Shown piece after piece: positions 20,881-64,000 of a stretch of DNA of 64,000 bases. Each line of letters opens with the position of its first letter. Positions within the stretch are counted from its first letter, which is position 1. Both the position numbers and the translations under genes were made by a program. Under the pieces are notes generated by a model. The model searched no databases. It worked only from the letters and a program-made list of their open reading frames with translations, and had not been told where the DNA came from. The stretch comes from a virus, in IMG/VR virus record IMGVR_UViG_3300025705_000581; one strand, written 5' to 3'.

Positions 20881-23800
20881 TTATACTACAGCTCGGCTGT
20901 TAGATGCTCGTCTTGCAAGTTTACGAACCGATGATGTAAACGGACGGCCTTCAATTCGACCTGTTCTACCGTTAATTCTCAATCCTCTTGCAAAGTATTG
21001 GTTGTTAAGTTCGTCTGCACCTGACCAACGAACCCTGCCGCCATCTTCTGACAGTACAGATGCAATAGCAGAGATCGGCAAGCCGAGGTTTCTAAAGTTA
21101 ATTGGAAGCGCATTTCTGTTAACACCTGCCGAAGCACCATTAAACTGGTGAGCAATTGATTCAACAAGTGAACCAAAGGTCAATACACTCGGTCTTAGGA
21201 CAGACGCACGAAGAACATCATCAAACAAACCATCAATCATTGCGTCGTGGTTTATATCAGGTGTGTAATTCGTTTTAATAAATGTTTTCATTCTTGTCCA
21301 TGCCTGATAGAATGATACAAGTAGATCCACGTTATTTGCTCCATCTGTTTGCCATGCTGTTCCGTCCCAATAGTAAATAGTACCGTCATACCTATTTCCG
21401 GCATAATCCGTTGATACTATATATGCGTGATTTGGTTTTTGTCCAGTGACATTACCAAGTGCGCCCAATCCGTTCAGTGTACCTTGGAAACTTAATCCTG
21501 GTGTTGTTGGATTGAATACTGGGAACACGTGCTTACCATTGTAATCGAAGAATGCTGCTGCATATGTTCTCGTGGATGTTTGACTTCCATCTTGATTTGT
21601 GACAACATTTTGGAATTTAAAGTCATTTGCCAATGATTGTAACAAGTTAGTTGCGTCACGGCGAGTCAAGTTAATGTCGAAGAATTTATAATTCTGTCCA
21701 ACAAATCTTACAGTCTCAACAGACAATTTCTTTCTGTTGGCTTTAAGGATTTCTCGAGCAAATTTAAACACTTTATTATCTTCCCATTCAAAGTCAGGTA
21801 GGATTGTTGGTCCAAAGTCTTTTTCATCTTTGTTTAGGAACGAGCGATAATAGATATCGGCAAGGTCATAAACGTGTTGTGCTTCAACTGCTGTTGTTGA
21901 CTCACCTTTAATAGAAACACCTGGTAGTGTTTCAAGAAGTGCGTCACGAGCAATCTCACCTAATTTACGGTATGCTTTTGCAGTTGGCACACGTTGATCT
22001 TCTGGGATACGATATACGTTGTTCCAGAAGTAGAATGCCGCATTCCATTTAGAAGCAGATGTTCCACCGTAGTTTAGGTCATATGCAAATGCGTCAACAA
22101 GATATCCTGCATCTCGGCGACACTTAACTTTGTTATAATCCAATACATTATAAGTAGTATTTATCCAATTTGTTACATCGTCTGCGAGGATATCCAAATT
22201 ATCATCAATTTCTTTACCCGCCCAAACAAGGCTGTTATCAATCCATGAAGTATCAGGTTCAATGATTTCAGGTATACCGTCAATGCTATCACGGCGGATT
22301 GCATCTTCAATAATACGGATCATATCGGCAACATATTCACCTTCAACCGCAGTTGCTGGTGCACCTGATATATCTTGTGCTTGTCTTGTAACAATTGCTT
22401 TTCTGATTGCACCTTCTGTTGCTGATACAAATGTATGAGCTTTATCAACACCTGCCGGTCCGGCATTCATTGTAATTGTGGTACCGTCAACAAATTCAAC
22501 TCTACATGGTTTACCATCTGCCCATTCATCACCGCCAACACGTGGGTGTGAAATATTAATTGGTGTAGGATCAACGTCTGATGTTGGGCAAGAGAATGTA
22601 ATGCCCAAGTTATCAAATGTTACGAAGTCACCTGCTTCAATGTTATGAGAACCGATTGTTGCTGTCATCATACCAGTAAGTGGATCATAATCTACACCTG
22701 TTGGAGTGTAACCGTAATTGGTTGGTGTTTGCTCCTGAACAACTGCTGATACTAAATCTGCCATTACAGTATATAGATCTGCGGTTTGCTGACGTTGGTC
22801 ATATGGCAGTACGCTTGTTGCATTTCTAAAGTAGAACTGTGCAGATTGTACCGATGCAAAGTTGGTTGTGTAGTTAACGTCATGCGATATAGCATCTACA
22901 AGGATACCAATGTCACGGCGACATTTCTGTTTCGGATAACTAATACCATTCCAATTGTTTGTGATATAATTAATAACCGATGTTGCAAGAGCAGGAATTG
23001 AATCTTCAATTGCTTCTTTTGCTGTGATAAGATCAGATTGGATCCAATTTGTAAATGGTGGAACCTCTAATGGAATACCTTTCTCATCATTATCATCTGC
23101 AATATTTGCAACAATCCATGCCAAGTTTTTAGCTTCGGTTGCAATTGTTCTTCTTGCTGCAAGATGAGATGTATCTTGTTTGATAAGGTTTCCTGTTACT
23201 TGTGAAACCGCATTTGGTAATGCTGATACGAATGTATGAGCACCACCTGCAGCAGGACCAACATTAACAGTAATAGTTGTTGATGATGTTGCAAGTACAG
23301 GAATTGCACGGAGGTATGCAGGATGGTGCGGTTGTGGTGCCGCGTGGTTTGTTGTGTTTCCATCCATGTCACAAGTAAATGTCATACCATCCTCAGTTAG
23401 CATAACATGGTCATTAGTTGTTAACTCATGCTGACCAATTGTGATTACAATTTCACCAGTTACGTTATCGTATGCTGCAGTTGTTGGTGTATATTTTGCA
23501 CCAAATTCAACAGGTACCAATTCATTTCTTGTTACGTGCTCAACGATTTCACCGAGGCGAGTAAATGCCATTCTTGTTGCATCACGTTGATCTGTTGGTA
23601 ATAGGTTAACTGCATTTTTGAAATACAATCCTGCGGCATTTACCATTGCTGAATTACCACCGTATTGAATATCGTGGCAAATTGCATCAAGGATATAACC
23701 TGTATCACGGAAACAACGGTCACGGTCATACTCGAGGTAGTTGAATGTTGTTTTTAGATAATCAGTAATTGTTGATTGTAATGCGTCTTTTCTTGAACCA

Positions 23801-26800
23801 ATCAATGCTGCTTCAGTTTCATAACCGTAAGATGCAGCACCAACTGCTCCTGCGAATACTTCAATATCATCTGGCATATCAACCAATGAGTCGGCAGCAA
23901 TTACAGTTGCAATAATTTCCCAAAGATCTTGCATATCATTTCCGATTGCCGCAGCAACAGGACCGAATACTTTATTTTGGATTACAGTGTTACCTGCTGA
24001 TGGTGTAACATCAATCTTAAGGATCAAGCTGCGAGAAACATCACCGAGGTGTGTATATAATGCAGCAGTAGGTGCACGTTGATCTGCGGACAATGTTGAT
24101 AGTCCGTTTTCAAAGTACAATTTAGCAACATCAAGCATAGCAGTATTAGTTACGTGCTGAATGTCATATGATGCAGCATCAGCCATGATACCGGTATCTC
24201 TTTCACATTTAGCAGTATCGTATACCAATGATGGGTAATTAACTGCAACCCATGCTGTTGCTTCAGCCTGTAAGAATGCGCGGTTCAATTGTAATGCTTG
24301 TCTTGCATTTATATTATTTGACCCACGGTTTCCTGTACCGTAATCATAGTTTGTACCGTCAGGTGTGTAATCGTTTACCATTGCGGTAATAATATTACTG
24401 AAGGAATTCTGAGCTCTTTCTAATGCCACACCAGTCAATCTTGACTCAATGTCTTTTTGTATATATTGAATTCCTTCAATTGTTTCGGCAAGTTGGTCTT
24501 CGATAACCTTATCAGCGCCTACAGTACCAATGCGGTACGATTTGCCTACGTACTTACCATTATAGTTTGAACCTGTTTGAACATCTCTTCTAACTGCGTC
24601 AAGGATAAATCCTGCATCACGAGCGCATTTGTTTTCATCAAATGTATAGAATTCGTCATCAATATAGTTAACGATTTCATTTTGAATAAACTCACGGTTC
24701 ATGGCAAGTGATTGTCTTGCGTATGTTCTTGATGGTTCCATCAATGGTGATGATGTAACCGCAGGTATTTTGCTAGGTGAGAAATCATCAACTGTTTGTG
24801 CGATAATTTCAACAAGATTATGGGCACGAGAACCAGTTGCAACATCCGCCGCTGGGATAGATGTTGTATCTTGTACTCTTACATTACCTGTTGTCGCTGT
24901 TACAGTGATAGCACGAGAAACTTCATCAATAACATCAGCAAGGTGTTGATATGCTAATCTTGTCGGTCCTCTTTGCTCAGGTGGTAATGTATTAACTGCA
25001 CCAAGGAAGTAATAATTTGCAGAATGTACTGTCGCGGCATCTCCGCCGTATTCCAAATCTTCGGTGATTGCGTCAACAATGTAACCAATATCACGGTAAC
25101 ATTTAGCTTCGTTATATGCAAGACCTGAATATGTCACAGCAATCAGATCAATGATTTCTGTTTGATATTTTGGTTTTGATCCACCAATCAATCTTGCTTC
25201 TGATATGATTGTTGTGCCATATGCCGATGTTGGTTTTGGCTCAATAACTGTAGGAACAGTGCCATCGTTATTTCTGATTGTTTGGCCTACACCATCAAAC
25301 AGATTAACTACTGAACTTGATACCGTCGGTGCAAGTGATCTTCTAATACCGTTTGCTGTCGCTGATACAAAAGTATGTACCTTATCAACCTTAGCGTCAC
25401 CGACCTGCATTGTAATAGTTGTTGCAGTTACAGCATCAATTCTAACTGGTTTGTTAAAGATTGGATCAGTTGGGCGTGGGTGTGAGATATTAATTGGTGT
25501 TGCATCAGTTGGTGATGTTGGGCAAGATAGTGTGATTGCGTTCTCATCAAAGATAACATAATCGCCAACACTAAATCTGTGTCTATCACCAAGAGTAACT
25601 TCCATTACACCTGTCATATGAGCATATGCAACATTAGTTGCTGTATATGCCTCGGCAACATTTGCTCGGCGGATACAATCAGCATCAGCAGATACGAATG
25701 TGTGAGCACCAGTATAACCATTTGCTGCACCGGCATTTACAGTAATTGTAGTTGCATCGGCAGCAGTAATGATATATTGTTTACGTAGGTTAGGATCCGC
25801 AGCATTTGGATGTGAGTCTGTTCCACCGCCACCGAAGCCACAGCTGAATGTGATTGATTCAGGATCAATTGTAATTCTATCACCGACAACAAAATTATGA
25901 GTACCAATTGTTGTTACCATGATACCGGTAACAGGATCATAAGTTGCAGTTGTTGGTGTATAAGTATCTTCATCAGTTTTAACTTGTGTAACAACTCCTT
26001 GAAGATTATCAACGTCTTCACCGCGAACAATTTGACCTGCGATTTTAGCAATGTGGTCATATACTTCTGATGTTGGTACGATTTCATCATCTGCCAAAAC
26101 AGGTAATGCATTTTCAAAATACAGTCTTGAATTATTTACAGTTGATGCAGTTGAACCGTGTTGGACATCCCAAGAAACAGTATCAACAAAGATACCAAGG
26201 TCACGCTCACAGGCAACAGCGTCATAAACAAATCCAGGATGGTTTGCTGTGATCCACGCAATTGCTTCTTTTTGGATGAATGATTTATTAAGTTGTAGGA
26301 TATGGCGTGCTGCAAACGCATCTTCTGATATTGATTGAATACCGAAGTCGATTACATCCGCGGCGGCATTACCGTTTGACATAATATCAATGATTTCATC
26401 AAATGCTGCATTAGAGCGAGCAATTGCTGTTGCATCAGTTAATACGTCAGTGTTAATTTTACCTTTGAGCCATGTAATAGCACCAACAGTTTCTGTTAAT
26501 TGGTTATTAACAACATTGTTAGCACCTACAGTACCAATGCGATAACCCATACCTGTGTAAACTGCGTTATTGTTTGAACCTGTCAAAACGTCACGCATTA
26601 CAGCGTTAAGGATATATCCTGTGTCGCGCATACATTTTTCTTTATCATAGATAAAGTAATTATCATTCAACCATGCAGTAATTTCTTCTTGAATAAAGGT
26701 TTTGTTTTTCTGCAATTGTCTTGCGGCATACTTACCTTTTTCAGATGAGCTTACTTTAATAATTGAACCTTCTTCAGCAGATACGAATGTATGAGTACCT

Positions 26801-29800
26801 GTATAACCACCCGCTGAGCCTGCATTGAATGTAATTGTAGTTGCATCCGCGGCGGTTACTTCTTGTGGGTGTTCGTACATCGGCTCACCGATACGTGGGT
26901 GATAGTCTGTTCCACCGCCATTAAATCCACAACTAAATGCGAAACTCAACGGTTTTGTTTGAACATTATCGCCTACTTCAATATCGTGTCCGGGGATTGT
27001 TACAACCATGTCACCTGTGTTAGGATTATATGTTGCGTCGGTTGGTGTGTAAGCTTTAACAAATTTTGCTGGGTCAGTAAAGTACAATGCGTGCCCATCA
27101 ATACAATCTTTTGTTGCCGATACGAATGTGTGCGTATTAGCATGCCCGTTAGCATTACCAACATTAACAGTAAATGTTGTTGAAGTTGTTTCTGTAATTC
27201 TTACAGGCTGATTATATGCTGGGTGACCTGGTAATGGTGCAGGATCTGTTCCTACAACACCGCCAACATCACAACTGAATACGATTGACTCAGGAGCAAT
27301 TGAAATCCATTGTCCTACAGGCAAATCATGCTGACCAATTGTTACAACCATTTCACCGTTTACAGGATCATATGTTGCATCTTGTGGTGTATATTTTCCT
27401 GTCCACATGCCATCTTCACGAATAGCATTTGTTGTTGCTGATACGAATGTATGAGCAGAAGTATCTTGTGATTTACCAACATTAACTGTAATAGTTGTTG
27501 CGGTTCTTGCACTGATTTCAACAGGGTTTTCGTATGCAGGATGCTGGCGTTCTGTTGTCAGACCATCGGCCAATGCTGATACGAATGTATGTACTCCGCC
27601 ACCATCTTCAACTGCACCGACATTCATTTTTAAAACAAAACCGTCAACTTCATCAATTGTTACAGGCTTATTAAAGAATGGGTGATGTGACTCAGGCGCG
27701 GCATGCTCGGTTACGTTATCATCAAGCTCACAAGTAAATGTTACGGCACCTGGTTTGAATGTTACAGTATCGCCTGCTTTCAATTGGTTAGCAGAAATTG
27801 TAACCGTGAACTCACCAGTTGATGGAACGTATGTTGCGGTTGATGGTGTCCATGTTTCAAATGTTGTTGATGGATACGCATGCTGTGAAGTGTTCCCATC
27901 AAGAGCACAGGTAAATACCATGCTGTTCTTTTCAATGCGGATTTTATCACCTACGGCAAAATCGTGAGCACCGATTGTAATTTCAACTACACCGGTTACA
28001 GGATTATACGCTGCATTAGTTGGTGTGTATTTTTTACCATTATTATTCAACAGTGCAACCATTTGGTCAAACGATGTGTTAACTCTATCAACTGCAAGTG
28101 TGTTACCTGTTACTGTGTTTGCAGTTTCAGATTTCATATGGTTGATTGAAGCAACAGTTTGCTCAAGTTGTTTTGTAACACTTACTTCGCCTGATTTAGA
28201 ACGGTAAGCAATACCTGTTTGATATGCGTTAAAGTTTGTACCTAACAACAAATCTCTTTGAACGGCAGGCATGATATATTCTTTAGTATCTCTTTCACAC
28301 TTTTTGCTGTCATAGAAATACCATTGATTTTCTGCCCATCCTTCCATGTAATCCTGGATGAATTCTTTGTTTGCTTGCAATTGCTTACGAGCATTACGTT
28401 TATCAGCAGGGATACCAGCATCATCAGAGAATGTTAATGCTTCACCTAATACGGATACAGATGATGGTTTTGCCGATACGAATGTATGAGCAAAGTTAGC
28501 ACCTGTTGTGCCTGCATTGATTGTAATAGTCTTTGCTGAAACTTCATCAATTGGTATAGCACGGCGGTAGTTAAATGTATCACTCTTACGTGGGTGAGAG
28601 ATTTCTAACTTGTTACCATCACTATCACAAGTGAATGTAAATGCTTCATCAGCAATTGTTACGAACTGACCTTTTTGCAAAGTATGGGCACCGATTGTGA
28701 TAACCATTCTTCCTGTATCAGGTTCGTATGTTGCTTTTGTTGGGTTGAATTTTTCAGTTCTTGTATTATCAAGAATATCAATAATTGTGCTCATTCTATC
28801 GTATGATCTTTCTGCCATGATTGCAGAGTTTGCTTCGACAAGATCATCGGTAATTTTGCGTAATCTTTCAAATGATCCAACAGTTTCTTCACGTTGATTT
28901 TCAACAACTGTTTGACCTTGTTTAGAATAATATGCCTGTCCTGCAACTACTGAGTTGTAGTTTGTATCAAGCAATGAGTCCCACTTAACAGCAGGTAGAA
29001 TATATTCTTGAATATCGCGGCGACATTTAGCACTATCGTATGAGAAGAATTCATCGTTATTATCAATCCATTCAACCATTCCATCAATAATAAGTTCACG
29101 GTTGTCTTGGATGATTTCACGAGCAGCTGTTCTTGCAACATTACCTGTATCTGTAAAGAATAGGTCAGATGCATATGACTCGCCATTCTCAAGAATGTTT
29201 AATGTCTCATCAAGTGAAACATTGGCACGAGTATTAACTGCTGCTTCTGAATTACTAAACAATCTGTTAATTTCTGATTTCAAATGTTCGTTGGCACCGA
29301 GAGTTTCAGTCAACTGCTCATTTTTAACAACATATGAAATTGGGCTTGAATAAGCAATGCCGTTTAATCGACCCCAATAGTTTGTATTGAGTGCAATGTC
29401 ATATCCAACACTATCAATGATAATTCCTGTGTCTCGTTTACATTTTTCAGCGTCATAACCTTGATAACCCAAACCACCTTGTGATATTGGTGTTGTCAAA
29501 TAACCAACCATGTCTTCAATAATGTCTTGCTTATTATCCATAAGGGTATCGGCAAATACAGTGTTAGAGAATAGTAATGTGTCATCCATTTGAGATGGTG
29601 TAAACACTTGAGTTGAACCTTTAGCTCTCATCGAAATGTCACCAAACTGAGTACCTGAGTTGTTGAGGGTCATTTGACCGCCGTTCAGCGCATAGAATGC
29701 TGTACGAACAAAGATTGACAACGAACCAATACCGTTAACACCAGCACCGTCTCTTGCAACATAACCCATACCGTTTTGAGTACGTGGTGTGAAACCAAAA

Positions 29801-31881
29801 CAAAGAACGTATGTAAATAATGAGTCAGGATCAAGTACACGACGGTCCGCGAGCATACACCCACCACCGCGACCAACAAGTCTGTTTGGGAAATCATCAA
29901 TACCAAGTGATGCAACTTGACCTGTACCGCCACTTTCAGAATATAGCATATCACCTGGTTGGACATCACCAACAAGGTTTCTTACATAGATTGCTGAGTC
30001 AGATGTAACACTTGTTGCCCAAGATACATACCCAGATGCACCTGATGAGAAGGTAATACTATCACCTTCGGCAAACAACGATTGAATTGAGTGACCTGCT
30101 TCCATAAAGAATTCTTGGCCAAGGTCAGCAATTGTACCTTTAGAGTTAAACGGATTAAGAGGTGGTTCAACATCCAAACGGTTAAAGTTTGATAGCTGAG
30201 AACTATCTCGAATATATGGCGAACGTCTTAGTTTTGCACCTGGGCGATATGCAACCGCAAATCCGCCTTCAGGATAATCAAAGTTATCAACTTCAAAGTT
30301 CATATATGCGAAACCTTGAACATAACAACCTGATCCAACAAGAACACCGTTAGTTCTTTCAAATCCTGGTTTCTTCTGAATAACTGTTGCGTACTGACCT
30401 GCTGTTGAAGTCATAGAACAATCGTCAGGCAATTCAATTGGGTCATCTACATAATAAGTACCTGGTCCGACCGAAATATGAACCGCATCATTTAACGCGT
30501 TTCTGTTATAAACACCACCTGCTTTTTCAACTGCAAGTTCTGCACCGCGTTTTAGTGTTTGAACAGGTTTAAGAATTGTACCTGGGTTTCTATCATCACC
30601 ATCAATGGCAACGTGTACCTTAAGTGCTTTTTCTGTTGACTTAGAAATTTCCTCAAAGAACTGGCGATAGCTGATCTGTTGTGTTTCATTTGTTTTAACA
30701 TTTTTAATGGCGAAGTAGTTATCTTCATCCATGTTTGGCTGCCACACATTGTGTAGTTCCATGTCAAAGTCAACAAGTGTTGAGCTATCAATTGTTGTAT
30801 TTGAAACTTCTGAGTCCTGAATAGAACCATCAACAAATGATGATTTATCAGAGATTGCCATTCCTTTTGTTTTGGAACTTGTGATGGTCATATTTGACGC
30901 TGTCACATTATCCATAATACCTTGGAACGATGAATTAGTAATTACGTTATTATCAAGAGTACCATCTTGAATTGTTGTATCGGTAAATATATTATTGGCG
31001 CCTGTTCCGTCACTGAAATCAGAGTCAGTAATATTTACTGAATTAATAAACCCGCCTGTGATGGAGGATGAAGTCATCGCAACATTGTTTGCGGTTGAAT
31101 CTATGATCCGACCTTGTAGAATAGTACTAGTAAATACGTTATTATTACCGGTGCCATCACTGAAATCAGTATTCAGGATGGTTGAGTTAGCAATTGCTGT
31201 ATCCCAAATTTGACCGTTTGAAAATCTTGAGTTTGTAATATCAACATCATCAAGATCAACATTGAAGATAGAACTGTTAGAGATTGTACCTTCAGAGAAA
31301 GTAGTCGTAACAATTGATGAATTAGAAATCGTAGCATCTTCGAGAATAAGTTCGTCAATACTAATATTTGTAAGGATCAGGCCGTTTGCAGTACCTTGGT
31401 CAATAGTAACATTATTATATTCGGAATTGTCAATACGAGAATTCGTAAAGACCATATTGTTACCTGTACCATCATTGAATGTTGAATTATCAATTGTTGA
31501 ATAGGTAAATACGTCGTTGTTACCTGTACCATCACTGAAATCGGAGTTCAGAATAGTTGACGAGTTCATCGAGATATTATTTGCGGTTGCAGTCAGAATG
31601 GTGACATTAGATATCACGGTCTGTTGCATTGTTCCGCGGTTTATTGTCGAGTCATTAATTTGTGTAGTATTAATAACTGAGTCAGACATTGTAACACCGG
31701 AGATTGTACCTCCAGTGATTGTAATTCTATCAAAGATTTCATATTGTATAGCTTGAACTAATTCAGCTCTAGTTAGGTTCTTTGTACCGTCATCACCTTG
31801 GATAAGGTTAACTATAACAAAGAGGTCTTCGGTACGTGTATTTGCACCGGTTATAGGACCTAGTTCTGTAATCTTTGACAT
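20881..31881 (-). CDS. Giant virion structural/fibre protein, 3666 aa: beta-solenoid N-terminus, pectin-lyase-like region, then alternating helical and beta repeats
   Basis: Single ORF; 11 YDxxKCxRDxG-type repeats; 9 YTPTxATYDPxTG...FxC...HP...HTFVSA repeats; late promoter upstream. Confidence 0.88.
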   Translation of the reverse strand: MSKITELGPITGANTRTEDLFVIVNLIQGDDGTKNLTRAELVQAIQYEIFDRITITGGTISGVTMSDSVINTTQINDSTINRGTMQQTVISNVTILTATANNISMNSSTILNSDFSDGTGNNDVFTYSTIDNSTFNDGTGNNMVFTNSRIDNSEYNNVTIDQGTANGLILTNISIDELILEDATISNSSIVTTTFSEGTISNSSIFNVDLDDVDITNSRFSNGQIWDTAIANSTILNTDFSDGTGNNNVFTSTILQGRIIDSTANNVAMTSSSITGGFINSVNITDSDFSDGTGANNIFTDTTIQDGTLDNNVITNSSFQGIMDNVTASNMTITSSKTKGMAISDKSSFVDGSIQDSEVSNTTIDSSTLVDFDMELHNVWQPNMDEDNYFAIKNVKTNETQQISYRQFFEEISKSTEKALKVHVAIDGDDRNPGTILKPVQTLKRGAELAVEKAGGVYNRNALNDAVHISVGPGTYYVDDPIELPDDCSMTSTAGQYATVIQKKPGFERTNGVLVGSGCYVQGFAYMNFEVDNFDYPEGGFAVAYRPGAKLRRSPYIRDSSQLSNFNRLDVEPPLNPFNSKGTIADLGQEFFMEAGHSIQSLFAEGDSITFSSGASGYVSWATSVTSDSAIYVRNLVGDVQPGDMLYSESGGTGQVASLGIDDFPNRLVGRGGGCMLADRRVLDPDSLFTYVLCFGFTPRTQNGMGYVARDGAGVNGIGSLSIFVRTAFYALNGGQMTLNNSGTQFGDISMRAKGSTQVFTPSQMDDTLLFSNTVFADTLMDNKQDIIEDMVGYLTTPISQGGLGYQGYDAEKCKRDTGIIIDSVGYDIALNTNYWGRLNGIAYSSPISYVVKNEQLTETLGANEHLKSEINRLFSNSEAAVNTRANVSLDETLNILENGESYASDLFFTDTGNVARTAAREIIQDNRELIIDGMVEWIDNNDEFFSYDSAKCRRDIQEYILPAVKWDSLLDTNYNSVVAGQAYYSKQGQTVVENQREETVGSFERLRKITDDLVEANSAIMAERSYDRMSTIIDILDNTRTEKFNPTKATYEPDTGRMVITIGAHTLQKGQFVTIADEAFTFTCDSDGNKLEISHPRKSDTFNYRRAIPIDEVSAKTITINAGTTGANFAHTFVSAKPSSVSVLGEALTFSDDAGIPADKRNARKQLQANKEFIQDYMEGWAENQWYFYDSKKCERDTKEYIMPAVQRDLLLGTNFNAYQTGIAYRSKSGEVSVTKQLEQTVASINHMKSETANTVTGNTLAVDRVNTSFDQMVALLNNNGKKYTPTNAAYNPVTGVVEITIGAHDFAVGDKIRIEKNSMVFTCALDGNTSQHAYPSTTFETWTPSTATYVPSTGEFTVTISANQLKAGDTVTFKPGAVTFTCELDDNVTEHAAPESHHPFFNKPVTIDEVDGFVLKMNVGAVEDGGGVHTFVSALADGLTTERQHPAYENPVEISARTATTITVNVGKSQDTSAHTFVSATTNAIREDGMWTGKYTPQDATYDPVNGEMVVTIGQHDLPVGQWISIAPESIVFSCDVGGVVGTDPAPLPGHPAYNQPVRITETTSTTFTVNVGNANGHANTHTFVSATKDCIDGHALYFTDPAKFVKAYTPTDATYNPNTGDMVVTIPGHDIEVGDNVQTKPLSFAFSCGFNGGGTDYHPRIGEPMYEHPQEVTAADATTITFNAGSAGGYTGTHTFVSAEEGSIIKVSSSEKGKYAARQLQKNKTFIQEEITAWLNDNYFIYDKEKCMRDTGYILNAVMRDVLTGSNNNAVYTGMGYRIGTVGANNVVNNQLTETVGAITWLKGKINTDVLTDATAIARSNAAFDEIIDIMSNGNAAADVIDFGIQSISEDAFAARHILQLNKSFIQKEAIAWITANHPGFVYDAVACERDLGIFVDTVSWDVQHGSTASTVNNSRLYFENALPVLADDEIVPTSEVYDHIAKIAGQIVRGEDVDNLQGVVTQVKTDEDTYTPTTATYDPVTGIMVTTIGTHNFVVGDRITIDPESITFSCGFGGGGTDSHPNAADPNLRKQYIITAADATTITVNAGAANGYTGAHTFVSADADCIRRANVAEAYTATNVAYAHMTGVMEVTLGDRHRFSVGDYVIFDENAITLSCPTSPTDATPINISHPRPTDPIFNKPVRIDAVTATTITMQVGDAKVDKVHTFVSATANGIRRSLAPTVSSSVVNLFDGVGQTIRNNDGTVPTVIEPKPTSAYGTTIISEARLIGGSKPKYQTEIIDLIAVTYSGLAYNEAKCYRDIGYIVDAITEDLEYGGDAATVHSANYYFLGAVNTLPPEQRGPTRLAYQHLADVIDEVSRAITVTATTGNVRVQDTTSIPAADVATGSRAHNLVEIIAQTVDDFSPSKIPAVTSSPLMEPSRTYARQSLAMNREFIQNEIVNYIDDEFYTFDENKCARDAGFILDAVRRDVQTGSNYNGKYVGKSYRIGTVGADKVIEDQLAETIEGIQYIQKDIESRLTGVALERAQNSFSNIITAMVNDYTPDGTNYDYGTGNRGSNNINARQALQLNRAFLQAEATAWVAVNYPSLVYDTAKCERDTGIMADAASYDIQHVTNTAMLDVAKLYFENGLSTLSADQRAPTAALYTHLGDVSRSLILKIDVTPSAGNTVIQNKVFGPVAAAIGNDMQDLWEIIATVIAADSLVDMPDDIEVFAGAVGAASYGYETEAALIGSRKDALQSTITDYLKTTFNYLEYDRDRCFRDTGYILDAICHDIQYGGNSAMVNAAGLYFKNAVNLLPTDQRDATRMAFTRLGEIVEHVTRNELVPVEFGAKYTPTTAAYDNVTGEIVITIGQHELTTNDHVMLTEDGMTFTCDMDGNTTNHAAPQPHHPAYLRAIPVLATSSTTITVNVGPAAGGAHTFVSALPNAVSQVTGNLIKQDTSHLAARRTIATEAKNLAWIVANIADDNDEKGIPLEVPPFTNWIQSDLITAKEAIEDSIPALATSVINYITNNWNGISYPKQKCRRDIGILVDAISHDVNYTTNFASVQSAQFYFRNATSVLPYDQRQQTADLYTVMADLVSAVVQEQTPTNYGYTPTGVDYDPLTGMMTATIGSHNIEAGDFVTFDNLGITFSCPTSDVDPTPINISHPRVGGDEWADGKPCRVEFVDGTTITMNAGPAGVDKAHTFVSATEGAIRKAIVTRQAQDISGAPATAVEGEYVADMIRIIEDAIRRDSIDGIPEIIEPDTSWIDNSLVWAGKEIDDNLDILADDVTNWINTTYNVLDYNKVKCRRDAGYLVDAFAYDLNYGGTSASKWNAAFYFWNNVYRIPEDQRVPTAKAYRKLGEIARDALLETLPGVSIKGESTTAVEAQHVYDLADIYYRSFLNKDEKDFGPTILPDFEWEDNKVFKFAREILKANRKKLSVETVRFVGQNYKFFDINLTRRDATNLLQSLANDFKFQNVVTNQDGSQTSTRTYAAAFFDYNGKHVFPVFNPTTPGLSFQGTLNGLGALGNVTGQKPNHAYIVSTDYAGNRYDGTIYYWDGTAWQTDGANNVDLLVSFYQAWTRMKTFIKTNYTPDINHDAMIDGLFDDVLRASVLRPSVLTFGSLVESIAHQFNGASAGVNRNALPINFRNLGLPISAIASVLSEDGGRVRWSGADELNNQYFARGLRINGRTGRIEGRPFTSSVRKLARRASNSRAVV

Positions 31882-62418: not shown

Positions 62419-62442
62419 AAAAGAAAAGGGCCGTAGCCCTTC
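62419..62442 (-). terminator. Rho-independent terminator with UACG tetraloop
   Basis: Minus strand AAGGGC-TACG-GCCCTT-TTCTTTT directly after the 72-aa gene stop. Confidence 0.8.
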
Positions 62443-62446
62443 TCAG

Positions 62447-62665
62447 TTATTCCTTATTTGAAACAAACGAATACATCTCTGTAGCTTTTTTCGTGAGCTC
62501 CTCGACTGAATATAGTTCAGTCATCTTTTGATATTCTTCAAATTGAATTTGACCTAATTCCATCATTTTGGCTGCATAGATATGGTTAGTTTCATGGATT
62601 TGATCCATATACTCTTTAGCCATCTGCAACATATCAGCACGAATTTCAAAAGGATTTTTACTCAT
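62447..62665 (-). CDS. Conserved phage hypothetical protein, 72 aa
   Basis: MSKNPFEIRADMLQMAKEYM...EELTKKATEMYSFVS; TAATG-coupled to the upstream gene. Confidence 0.8.
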   Translation of the reverse strand: MSKNPFEIRADMLQMAKEYMDQIHETNHIYAAKMMELGQIQFEEYQKMTELYSVEELTKKATEMYSFVSNKE

Positions 62666-62874
62666 TATTTTACTACCTTTGCAAAAGTTTCACCTGACGC
62701 ATTAGCAAATTCGCTCATTGATTTAACAGCGGTTTTGGTAAAAGCTGTTTGAGCTTCAATAAAGGCATGCAAAGGTGCAGACAGTTTCTCGTCTTTTACC
62801 AATGTGTCAACCATTGTTTTCTTTGTAGACTGGACATGGTCAATCCAATAATTAGTTGTAAAATCATTTAGCAT
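62665..62874 (-). CDS. Small amphipathic helical protein, possibly phasin-like, 69 aa
   Basis: AGGAG SD; IDHVQSTKKTMVDTLV...FIEAQTAFTKTAVKSM; phasin similarity is recollection only. Confidence 0.6.
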   Translation of the reverse strand: MLNDFTTNYWIDHVQSTKKTMVDTLVKDEKLSAPLHAFIEAQTAFTKTAVKSMSEFANASGETFAKVVK

Positions 62875-62893: not shown

Positions 62894-63088
62894 TTATCCG
62901 CCTCCTGCGAAGCGGTCTTTTGGTTTATACCAATTCTTTTGATGAAAGATTTTAGCTCTAAGATTTGTAATATCTTCTATTTCAAATCCTATTGTACCAG
63001 TGCGTTGCATTTGCAATAGCAATAGTGCTTCATCAATAATATTTATATCGTCAACATCTAAGTTAAAACTTGTATTAGGTTTTACCAT
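62894..63088 (-). CDS. Small hypothetical protein, 64 aa, resembling an alphaproteobacterial family
   Basis: NTSFNLDVDDINIIDEAL...KIFHQKNWYKPK...GG; TAATG-coupled to pseudoazurin. Confidence 0.7.
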   Translation of the reverse strand: MVKPNTSFNLDVDDINIIDEALLLLQMQRTGTIGFEIEDITNLRAKIFHQKNWYKPKDRFAGGG

Positions 63089-63519
63089 TACAGATCAGCC
63101 AATAGCTCCTCGAGTTTTTTCTTTGATTTACCTTTTACTTTGACACCTTTTAGACGATCCTTTACTACTTCAGGATCTGTGCCGCCTACGATAACAATAG
63201 CAATCATCCCCATTGTTTTGTGTGGTGAACATTGGTACAAGTAAACACCTGGTGTATTAAACGTCATTTCAACTTCTTCGTTGAGTTTTGATTTCTTTGG
63301 TGCTTTCCAACCATCTGGTCCTGCAACAAATTCTACATTGTGACCTTTTGATGTTGGTACCCAGGTAATTGTATCACCTACATCAATACGAGAAATGTCT
63401 TCGCTATACACCATTTTTGCGCCATCGTCACGTTTATTCAACATTTCAATAGTCATATCTTCAGCATATGCCGTTGTTGCGAAAAGAGCCATAAGGCTAG
63501 CAGTAATTAGATTTTTCAT
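63088..63519 (-). CDS. paz: Pseudoazurin (periplasmic type-1 blue copper electron carrier) with Sec signal peptide
   Basis: Signal MKNLITASLMALFATTAYA; mature EDMTIEMLNK...MVY...GDTITWVP..KGHNVE...TPGVYLYQCSPHKTMGMIAIVIVG (His, Cys-x2-His-x4-Met), plus the C-terminal helices of pseudoazurins. Confidence 0.93.
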   Translation of the reverse strand: MKNLITASLMALFATTAYAEDMTIEMLNKRDDGAKMVYSEDISRIDVGDTITWVPTSKGHNVEFVAGPDGWKAPKKSKLNEEVEMTFNTPGVYLYQCSPHKTMGMIAIVIVGGTDPEVVKDRLKGVKVKGKSKKKLEELLADL

Positions 63520-63546
63520 TTTTTTCCTATCTTTACTTCTTTACAT

Positions 63547-63726
63547 TCATAGTGATCTTGTTCCATAATAGGAACGGTAAACTTCAGCAAGTTCTTGTTG
63601 GTTAGTCGACTCCTGAACAACATAGTCAGTCTTATCAACTTGTGTTCCATCAGCAATTGCAATAGCATCTTCTTTGCGTGATGCTATAGCAATAATTTCA
63701 CCGTCTTTTTTCCTAACGATATGCAT
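63547..63726 (-). CDS. Small hypothetical protein, 59 aa (start MHIVRKK)
   Basis: ATG at 63726 overlaps the upstream stop (TAATG); the track's MFWSEL extension lies inside the upstream gene. Confidence 0.7.
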   Translation of the reverse strand: MHIVRKKDGEIIAIASRKEDAIAIADGTQVDKTDYVVQESTNQQELAEVYRSYYGTRSL

Positions 63727-63899
63727 TAATTCAGACCAAAACAAGGCAAATGGATTGCCATATTACAATACTTAGCATAGTCTTCAACACCAACCATTGC
63801 TAATGTTATTAACACAGGCAAAGCAGTTAGCATAAGCACGATAATCAATAATGCCCAACCAAGTCCTTTAGTTGTGCAATAGTTTGTTTGTTCACTCAT
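63726..63899 (-). CDS. Small membrane protein, 57 aa, three Cys (below track cutoff)
   Basis: GGAGA SD; MSEQTNYCTTKGLGWALLIIVLMLTALPVLITLAMVGVEDYAKYCNMAIHLPCFGLN*; one long hydrophobic span. Confidence 0.75.
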   Translation of the reverse strand: MSEQTNYCTTKGLGWALLIIVLMLTALPVLITLAMVGVEDYAKYCNMAIHLPCFGLN

Positions 63900-64000
63900 C
63901 GTCTATCTCCCAATAACGAACATAAAAATGATCCCCACATGCGTCAATCTCTGCCTGTGGATAACCTTCGCTCAACAACCATTCTAATGTATTGTTTTTC
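63892..64000 (-). CDS. C-terminal part of a small phage hypothetical protein (5' end outside the window)
   Basis: ...KNNTLEWLLSEGYPQAEIDACGDHFYVRYWEIDDE*; stop overlaps the next start. Confidence 0.65.
   Translation of the reverse strand, partial: KNNTLEWLLSEGYPQAEIDACGDHFYVRYWEIDDE

Follow-up and report, generated by a model that had tools for sequence, protein, structure and literature searches.

The 64,000-nucleotide stretch of viral DNA analysed here (IMG/VR virus record IMGVR_UViG_3300025705_000581; the window, meaning the whole of this stretch) contains a gene whose product, judged by its sequence and a predicted structure, is a pseudoazurin. We consider it reasonably likely that this is an auxiliary metabolic gene that provides a periplasmic carrier in the aerobic respiratory chain of the host during infection. 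Phage genes for electron transport are well described for cyanophage photosynthesis (psbA, petE, petF and PTOX); to our knowledge, hardly any have been described that serve respiration in the heterotrophs responsible for most of the ocean's carbon turnover. The window gene would move the PetE concept to a different cupredoxin family and, by implication, to respiration in heterotrophs. Coordinates of the features discussed are collected in Table 1.

The first-pass annotation, made from the letters alone, had described the pseudoazurin as complete, carrying a Sec signal and retaining its four copper ligands, and database searches bore this out. The product matched Pfam PF00127 (E=1.4e-15), the NCBIfam pseudoazurin model TIGR02375 (102.4 bits, E=1.2e-29, model positions 1–115 of 116) and every crystallised pseudoazurin in the PDB (E=4e-26 to 2e-18), including those of Sinorhizobium (3TU6, 4e-26) and Achromobacter (1BQK, 1e-24). 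The JGI automatic annotation already labels these proteins 'pseudoazurin'. The ligand codons were read on the raw sequence, and H60, C97, H100 and M105 align with the ligands of the PDB pseudoazurins, with the spacing C-x2-H-x4-M; the four-ligand motif is kept in 154 of 154 viral and cellular relatives. The signal peptide, MKNLITASLMALFATTAYA, has a charged N-terminal region, a hydrophobic core (mean Kyte-Doolittle value 1.78) and an A-x-A site, with cleavage predicted between AYA and E. This would leave a mature protein of 124 residues (13.8 kDa, isoelectric point 6.2) whose N-terminus aligns to residues 1–2 of the crystallised mature pseudoazurins, and the protein is expected to be exported to the periplasm and loaded with copper. 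Pseudoazurins are copper-binding proteins with a blue spectrum and a redox potential near +250 to +300 mV.

An AlphaFold model built from an 18-sequence alignment had a mean predicted local distance difference test score (pLDDT) of 89.7, with residues 1–20 at 50–59, and contained eight strands and helices at residues 116–123 and 131–142. Two C-terminal helices distinguish pseudoazurin from plastocyanin and amicyanin. When the model was compared with the PDB using Foldseek, the best 27 matches were all pseudoazurins, aligned over their full length, with target-normalised TM-scores of 0.83–0.88, a root-mean-square deviation of about 2 Å and 35–44% identity. Plastocyanins scored 0.67–0.78, and identification as a plastocyanin was rejected on this basis and on the TIGR02656 score (36.5 bits, cut-off 87.85). 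The window protein shares with the PDB pseudoazurins (3TU6; Achromobacter cycloclastes 1BQK/1ZIA; Alcaligenes faecalis 1PAZ; Paracoccus pantotrophus 1ADW) the 124-residue mature length, the His-Cys-His-Met site, the beta-sandwich followed by two C-terminal helices, and the Sec signal peptide. It differs from them in being virus-encoded, in a loop after the first His ligand that is two residues shorter, and in belonging to a separate marine alphaproteobacterial subfamily (branch support 99–100; TIGR02375 scores of 100–109 bits compared to 165 for the Sinorhizobium protein). The residue before the Cys ligand is Gln, not Lys, as in 3TU6.

Phage context and ancestry of the gene

In this T4-like myovirus, the pseudoazurin gene has the replication genes gp44, gp62 and regA on one side and the baseplate genes on the other. 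T4-type proteins in the window include the gp2 DNA end protector, a tail-tube cap (gp48/54), a gp5-like hub, a gp26-like hub and the gp6 baseplate wedge, and the closest cultured phages found via gp6 were the Sinorhizobium phages phiM12, phiM7 and phiN3 (40% identity). L001, a 5.9-kb IMG/VR contig from a different metagenome, shows 100% identity to the window and runs past the window end; upstream of the pseudoazurin string, on the same strand, it includes gp44, gp62, RegA, a dUTPase, a small secreted protein, Hsp20 and a membrane protein. The GC content of the gene (38.4%) is close to that of the window (38.8%). Relatives are encoded at 280 IMG/VR viral loci, 80 of which were kept for neighbourhood counts, and in these the pseudoazurin lies amid the same small phage genes or other genes of the group, at several genome positions. 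With T4-like genes on both sides, the GC content of the phage and the same neighbourhood in independent assemblies, the earlier statement that the gene is phage-encoded and not host contamination holds.

The search returned 5746 homologues, the best 120 of which (76–100% identical) were mostly unnamed metagenome proteins. The exact window protein was found on 21 contigs, and variants that are 93–99% identical were found on many more. A tblastn search of 50,697 phage records found no cultured phage with a pseudoazurin and only the petE of P-RSM6 (28% identity), and a megablast search for cultured relatives using the window from 51 to 64 kb gave no match. A full-text literature search, with supplementary tables and subscription journals outside its coverage, found no paper on a viral pseudoazurin, in agreement with the prior remark that no characterised one is known; the papers on cupredoxins as auxiliary metabolic genes that it did find concern viruses of nitrifiers only.

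A scan of cellular genomes, one per species and using an 8-sequence alignment, produced 174 loci, nearly all from marine Alphaproteobacteria (SAR11, OCS116/PS1, low-GC 'Rhodospirillaceae', Hyphomicrobiales and Rhodobacteraceae). The closest cellular relatives (L083, L085, L087 and L088; Rhodobacteraceae, Ascidiaceihabitans group) are 60–70% identical to the window protein, and those of Planktomarina, Hellea and Rhodospirillales about 52–56%. The pelagic alphaproteobacterial pseudoazurins have the same signal peptide and the same ligand loop as the window protein but differ in setting, as their genes have 45–50% GC and lie among housekeeping genes (PGI, acyl-CoA ligase, malonyl-CoA decarboxylase, LysR, GST). 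Pfam scans of the flanks of L083, L086, L087, L088, L094, L106 and L139 likewise found housekeeping genes, and phage-like neighbours were found at just two (L091 and L097) of the 80 cellular loci kept. L097 (PBPT01000016.1, 335 kb, labelled as a metagenome-assembled genome (MAG) of Neomarinimicrobiota) encodes a long-branch pseudoazurin with seven flanking open reading frames (ORFs) that are 25–42% identical to phage proteins of the window's nearest complete relative, and may come from a phage of very large size or from a viral contig placed in the wrong bin.

A phylogeny against host pseudoazurins, as proposed in the first-pass annotation, was built with IQ-TREE (88 rows, LG+C20, 142-column alignment), and a quick tree was concordant. 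The viral pseudoazurins formed one clade (support 97/94), sister (98/90) to seven cellular sequences from Rhodobacteraceae/Ascidiaceihabitans, Planktomarina, Hellea and two Rhodospirillales, and the marine subfamily was separated from the classical pseudoazurins (100/97). The viral clade is thus nested in a marine alphaproteobacterial subfamily, but with only 142 columns and a taxonomically mixed sister group the tree does not give a firm host assignment. Most simply, phages would have acquired the gene once, from a pelagic alphaproteobacterium, and then passed it on among themselves. An alphaproteobacterial host, which we regard as probable, is supported independently by the nearest complete relative, G001 (221 kb; 92% identical to the window in nucleotides where the two share sequence). 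It encodes a permuted, two-piece transfer-messenger RNA (tmRNA) with the tag ANDNYKPSGFALAA (L170:2772–3124, equivalent to G001:142772–143124), a type typical of Alphaproteobacteria. G001 also has genes for tRNA-Pro, tRNA-Trp and tRNA-Arg.

The only PHROG match of the window protein was phrog_515 (PetE, E=1.8e-8), consistent with the earlier naming of cyanophage plastocyanin as the known analogue; PetE is the closest one known. Like the window protein, PetE is a small exported type-1 copper carrier, found in T4-like marine phages without partner enzymes. Judging by the tmRNA type of G001 and by the closest cultured phages, the window phage is probably not a cyanophage, and with an alphaproteobacterial host the implied chain would be respiratory, not photosynthetic, unlike that served by PetE.

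The viral gene is under strong purifying selection. The median pairwise ratio of non-synonymous to synonymous substitution rates (dN/dS) was 0.105 (55 distinct viral coding sequences, 1246 pairs), and the window copy compared with other viral copies gave values of 0.09–0.20.

Companion genes in related phages and their absence here

Two further genes recur beside the viral pseudoazurin. A 68–69 residue single-pass peptide is encoded 14–16 nucleotides upstream in 59 of the 80 viral loci, and 10 of 10 distinct versions match PF07835 (COX4_pro_2, bacterial aa3 oxidase subunit IV; best E=5e-6); it is referred to here as the subunit-IV-like peptide. A DoxX-family protein of 133–135 residues with four helices is encoded beside the pseudoazurin in 60 loci, usually directly downstream with a TAATG overlap, and 12 of 12 versions match PF07681 (best E=2e-7). 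Proteins of the DoxX family are associated with membrane redox complexes linked to quinones. Both genes are present in 46 of the viral loci and neither in seven, while all 80 cellular loci have neither the one nor the other.

Of the seven viral loci that lack both partners, two are the window and L001. Alignment of the DNA with L007, L002 and L010 showed that exactly 189 nucleotides (63 codons) are missing from the subunit-IV-like gene. The deletion fuses the start codon to the last four codons and the stop, leaving a six-codon remnant whose ATG still overlaps the stop of the upstream gene (ATGA), with the Shine-Dalgarno region and the pseudoazurin intact beyond it. The absence of the subunit-IV-like gene from the window is therefore due to a clean deletion. 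A tblastn search of the window with three DoxX representatives gave no match, and g64 follows the pseudoazurin directly. The description of the gene as translationally coupled to its neighbours stands for the downstream side, where stop and start overlap (TAATG, 63086–63090), and fails on the upstream side, where there is a 27-nucleotide spacer with no overlap, which is the scar of the deleted gene.

Five loci (L002, L004, L012, L018 and L020) share with the window the pseudoazurin clade together with g57TM, g65, g64, g69 and g72. In contrast to relatives that carry the cassette, the window is without the subunit-IV-like and DoxX genes and also without that for a 96-residue membrane protein whose sequence starts MCPACY. 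This MCPACY gene follows the pseudoazurin with a TAATG overlap in eight loci (L004–L007, L012, L015, L017 and L018; for example L007:3670–3960), and in seven of the eight DoxX lies elsewhere in the locus. In most relatives the place of g64 is taken by the DoxX-family or the MCPACY gene. The g57TM product was considered as a form of the subunit-IV-like peptide and rejected, as it had no PF07835 match up to E 10 and no PDB match; it represents a separate family with three invariant cysteines.

No cupredoxin was found anywhere in the G001 genome, and the four close relatives (L177, L178, which is G001, L180 and L182; baseplate-hub identity 94–95%) are without the pseudoazurin at this slot. In G001 the slot between g65 and a g64-like gene holds an unrelated 78-residue ORF beginning MKWLIVFTMLEAEPF, with no Pfam match. 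The G001 g64-like gene is about 36% identical to that of the window, and the flanking genes are 87–98% identical. More distant relatives (hub identity about 60%) hold the pseudoazurin at exactly this slot, with g69 and g72 genes that are up to 100% identical to those in the window. This points to exchange of the small-gene region by recombination, and the pseudoazurin position looks like a small hypervariable slot.

A possible role in respiration and the alternatives

In the scheme we propose, an uncultured marine T4-like myovirus of about 215–220 kb, probably infecting an alphaproteobacterium, would transcribe the pseudoazurin gene as part of the run of small genes, early or middle, that follows gp44/gp62/regA. 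The host Sec system would export the product with cleavage of the 19-residue signal peptide, and copper would be acquired in the periplasm. The 124-residue blue-copper protein would then move single electrons, most likely from cytochrome bc1 or periplasmic dehydrogenases to the terminal cytochrome c oxidase, supplementing or replacing host cytochrome c so that the proton-motive force and ATP supply last through infection. The use of copper in place of haem iron may be an added benefit. We infer the expression timing, the redox partners and the benefit to the phage.

The respiratory role is suggested by an intact pseudoazurin with an export signal, by the strong constraint on it and by its coupling to the aa3 subunit-IV-like peptide and DoxX. 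No cytochrome c domain was found in five phage records (one complete) using PF13442, the sole cytochrome c model searched. Respiration and denitrification had both been suggested beforehand; given the coupling to the subunit-IV-like peptide in 59 of 80 loci, respiration fits best, while denitrification was poorly supported, with no NirK match over the cut-off in the five closest cellular carriers, genomes of unstated completeness.

Several points weigh against this interpretation. The TIGR02375 score of the window protein is about 7 bits short of the curated cut-off (109.85). However, marine-subfamily cellular members score 100–105 bits and other viral copies 106–109, compared to 164.7 for the Sinorhizobium protein, so the shortfall appears to be a trait of the whole marine subfamily, cellular members included, and not of this gene. 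The PF07835 match of the companion peptide, at 24–26 bits, is above the cut-off but covers only the 27-position transmembrane helix. Both of the companion genes that suggest an oxidase are missing in this phage, and the pseudoazurin itself is dispensable and accessory in the phage group. The window copy also has a longer terminal branch (0.11–0.12), and at two positions where every other viral copy keeps lysine it has glutamate (K81E and K137E). These are among five private substitutions relative to 41 other distinct viral proteins, the others being I65V, D88N and V110I. It has a five-residue insert ahead of the first C-terminal helix, and its mature isoelectric point of 6.2 compares with a viral median of 8.05.

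The lone carrier may work without the subunit-IV-like and DoxX proteins, or this sublineage may be in the process of losing the cassette. We favour the former, based on the intact gene, the dN/dS values and the occurrence of the exact protein and near-identical copies on many contigs (21 for the exact protein). A broader and distinctly more tentative proposal is that a respiratory module found only in viruses is carried by marine T4-like phages whose hosts are heterotrophic Alphaproteobacteria. In it, pseudoazurin, the subunit-IV-like peptide and the quinone-associated DoxX would rewire electron flow to the terminal oxidase during infection, and the window would represent a minimal form in which the copper carrier alone suffices. 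In that case the photosynthesis genes of cyanophages would have a widespread, as yet undescribed counterpart in viral control of respiration and a move from haem iron towards copper. Pseudoazurins of this family are frequent in marine viral sequence, and the viral ones share a single origin. If host respiration is indeed sustained in this way, infected cells would respire partly on a viral copper protein, with a bearing on how infection alters oxygen use and the demand for iron and copper in trace-metal-limited seawater. Among close relatives, some have the full cassette and some lack the pseudoazurin gene entirely, while this phage has the gene alone; this natural experiment allows the contributions of the parts to be compared without engineering.

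An iron-sparing benefit is compatible with the respiratory role and fits the haem-related genes of the phage group. G001 encodes a 398-residue protein with the class I/II aminotransferase fold (PF00155, E=5e-65; L171:12945–14141, equivalent to G001:172945–174141) that is probably a 5-aminolevulinic acid (ALA) synthase. Viral AlaS, HemO and PcyX have been described in aquatic phages, with no mention of pseudoazurin (Nat Commun 2024, PMC11480375). Homologues of the ALA-synthase-like protein are encoded within about 3 kb of the viral pseudoazurin in L023, L077 and L080, and others (45–50% identity) lie directly beside cellular, alphaproteobacterial pseudoazurin genes in L143, L148, L152 and L160. 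Joint acquisition of pseudoazurin and ALA synthase was considered and is unsupported, as the cellular pseudoazurins involved belong to a distant long-branched clade.

An unlikely alternative to the respiratory carrier is that the pseudoazurin accepts electrons from a SorT-type periplasmic sulfite dehydrogenase, feeding sulfite from organosulfur breakdown into the respiratory chain during infection. A SorT-SorU-pseudoazurin system is known from Sinorhizobium meliloti, and the link to sulfite dehydrogenase drawn in the first-pass annotation has a counterpart in two SAR11 single-cell genomes, L106 (3247–6387) and L096. There, moaA, sorT (PF00174 and PF03404), a cytochrome c gene (PF13442) and the pseudoazurin gene are contiguous, and this Pelagibacteraceae string appears to be a sulfite oxidation cluster of the S. 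meliloti type. However, the arrangement occurs in only two of the 80 cellular loci and in a clade other than the viral one, and none of the 80 viral loci has a sorT close to the pseudoazurin gene. Oxidored_molyb proteins occur in each of the five closest cellular genomes, but this result is unspecific, as PF00174 covers MsrP-type enzymes too.

Somewhat less plausible still is that the gene is a passenger in the course of being lost, which gives little benefit without its partners and persists only for now. The deletion scar, the absence of the gene from the four nearest relatives with coverage, the charge-changing substitutions unique to the window copy with the resulting difference in isoelectric point, and the longer terminal branch would all fit this reading. 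Against it, the reading frame, ligands and signal peptide are intact, pairwise dN/dS is low (0.09–0.20), and the protein recurs, exactly (21 contigs) or as 93–99% identical variants, on many contigs. The solo form also recurs, in seven of the 80 viral loci.

We think it improbable that the protein donates electrons to nitrite, nitric-oxide or nitrous-oxide reductases and so sustains denitrification in low-oxygen water. This is the established, classical role of pseudoazurin in Achromobacter, Alcaligenes and Paracoccus, and the PDB alignment indicates that K29, K58 and K76 are kept, three of the four lysines of the docking ring. However, no NirK match over the cut-off was found in the five closest cellular carriers (completeness unstated; several are MAGs and one is a single-cell genome), with NirS, NorB and NosZ outside the search. 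Members of the subfamily occur widely among pelagic Alphaproteobacteria, for instance SAR11, OCS116/PS1 and the pelagic roseobacters, which are aerobes, and the viral relatives couple the pseudoazurin to an aa3 subunit-IV-like peptide. Finally, host contamination or an assembly chimera, for example with a gene from a Hellea MAG, can be ruled out for practical purposes: NCBI lists a 99% identical protein (P0002) as 'MAG: pseudoazurin [Hellea sp.]' and L091 sits in a Rhodobacteraceae bin, but the neighbours of L091 are themselves phage genes, labels of this kind are what phage contigs drawn into a bin would receive, the gene has the GC content of the phage, T4-like genes lie on both sides in the window and in L001, and the same junctions recur in many independent assemblies.

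Gene string and local elements

The pseudoazurin gene is part of a string of small genes on the minus strand, in the order sigma-70-like match, g57TM, g65, pseudoazurin, g64, g69, g72 and a strong terminator-like hairpin (Table 1).

Table 1. Features in and around the pseudoazurin gene (window positions unless another locus is named)
Feature	Position	Strand	Description
Terminator-like hairpin	62423–62444	-	9 pairs, 5 GC, then T run; right after g72
g72	62447–62665	-	Small conserved phage gene; last of the co-directional string
g69	62665–62874	-	Small conserved phage gene
g64	62894–63088	-	64 residues, no family match; ATG overlaps pseudoazurin stop
Pseudoazurin gene	63088–63519	-	ATG start, TAA stop, 143 residues
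Copper ligand M105	63205–63207	-	Codon
Copper ligand H100	63220–63222	-	Codon
Copper ligand C97	63229–63231	-	Codon
Copper ligand H60	63340–63342	-	Codon
Signal peptide	63463–63519	-	Residues 1–19, then ED; predicted Sec type
Shine-Dalgarno-like AGGA	63525–63528	-	5 nucleotides before pseudoazurin ATG
Deletion scar	63533–63550	-	ATG AAT GTA AAG AAG TAA (MNVKK, stop), remnant of subunit-IV-like gene
g65	63547–63744	-	Small conserved phage gene, 59–65 residues, no family match; directly upstream
g57TM	63726–63899	-	57 residues, single-pass membrane peptide, invariant YCTTK...YC...PC cysteines
Sigma-70-like promoter match	63919–63947	-	TTGACG-17-TATGTT, 9/12 of consensus; upstream of g57TM
78-residue slot ORF MKWLIVFTMLEAEPF	L082:1213–1449 = G001:72486–72722	-	Replaces pseudoazurin

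Sigma-70-like matches in the region were no more frequent than expected from shuffled sequence, and the match upstream of g57TM, a weak one to the consensus, is a candidate early promoter. Intrinsic-terminator-like sites, in contrast to the 0.8 expected, numbered four, and the hairpin after g72 is the probable end of the transcription unit that holds the pseudoazurin. The Shine-Dalgarno-like motif is kept in relatives (AAGATAGGAAA). No T4 late promoter (TATAAATA) was found upstream of the pseudoazurin. The nearest copy (63040–63047, minus strand) lies inside g64, 41 nucleotides past its start codon, and in the whole window eight copies were found compared to 6.6 expected, which is no enrichment.

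The g57TM gene is the commonest neighbour of the viral pseudoazurin (49 of 80 loci) and is also present in G001, which has no pseudoazurin. Members of this family are 52–88 residues long, with invariant Y7-C8-T-T-K, C45 and C53, and have no family or structure match. The g65 gene adjoins the pseudoazurin in 37 of the 80 related loci and is likewise found in a relative without it. Just past the window end, L001 encodes a 106-residue protein with a signal peptide (MKYLILLTALLAAPAVAQ; L001:2782–3102) and, in the same gene string, a 120-residue multi-pass membrane protein (L001:3752–4114), both with no family match. Several products of this region appear to be aimed at the host envelope.

Elsewhere in the window, the ORF at 20881–31881 (3666 residues) was considered as a cupredoxin-repeat protein like the metagenomic P0200 (3670 residues) and rejected, as BLASTP found no significant similarity to either pseudoazurin or P0200. 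P0200 itself has 12 pseudoazurin-like stretches. Together with P0121 (1452 residues) and P0122 (1353 residues) it is one of three very long metagenomic proteins, unrelated to this window ORF, in which 8–12 tandem stretches match the copper-site half of pseudoazurin at 28–37% identity.

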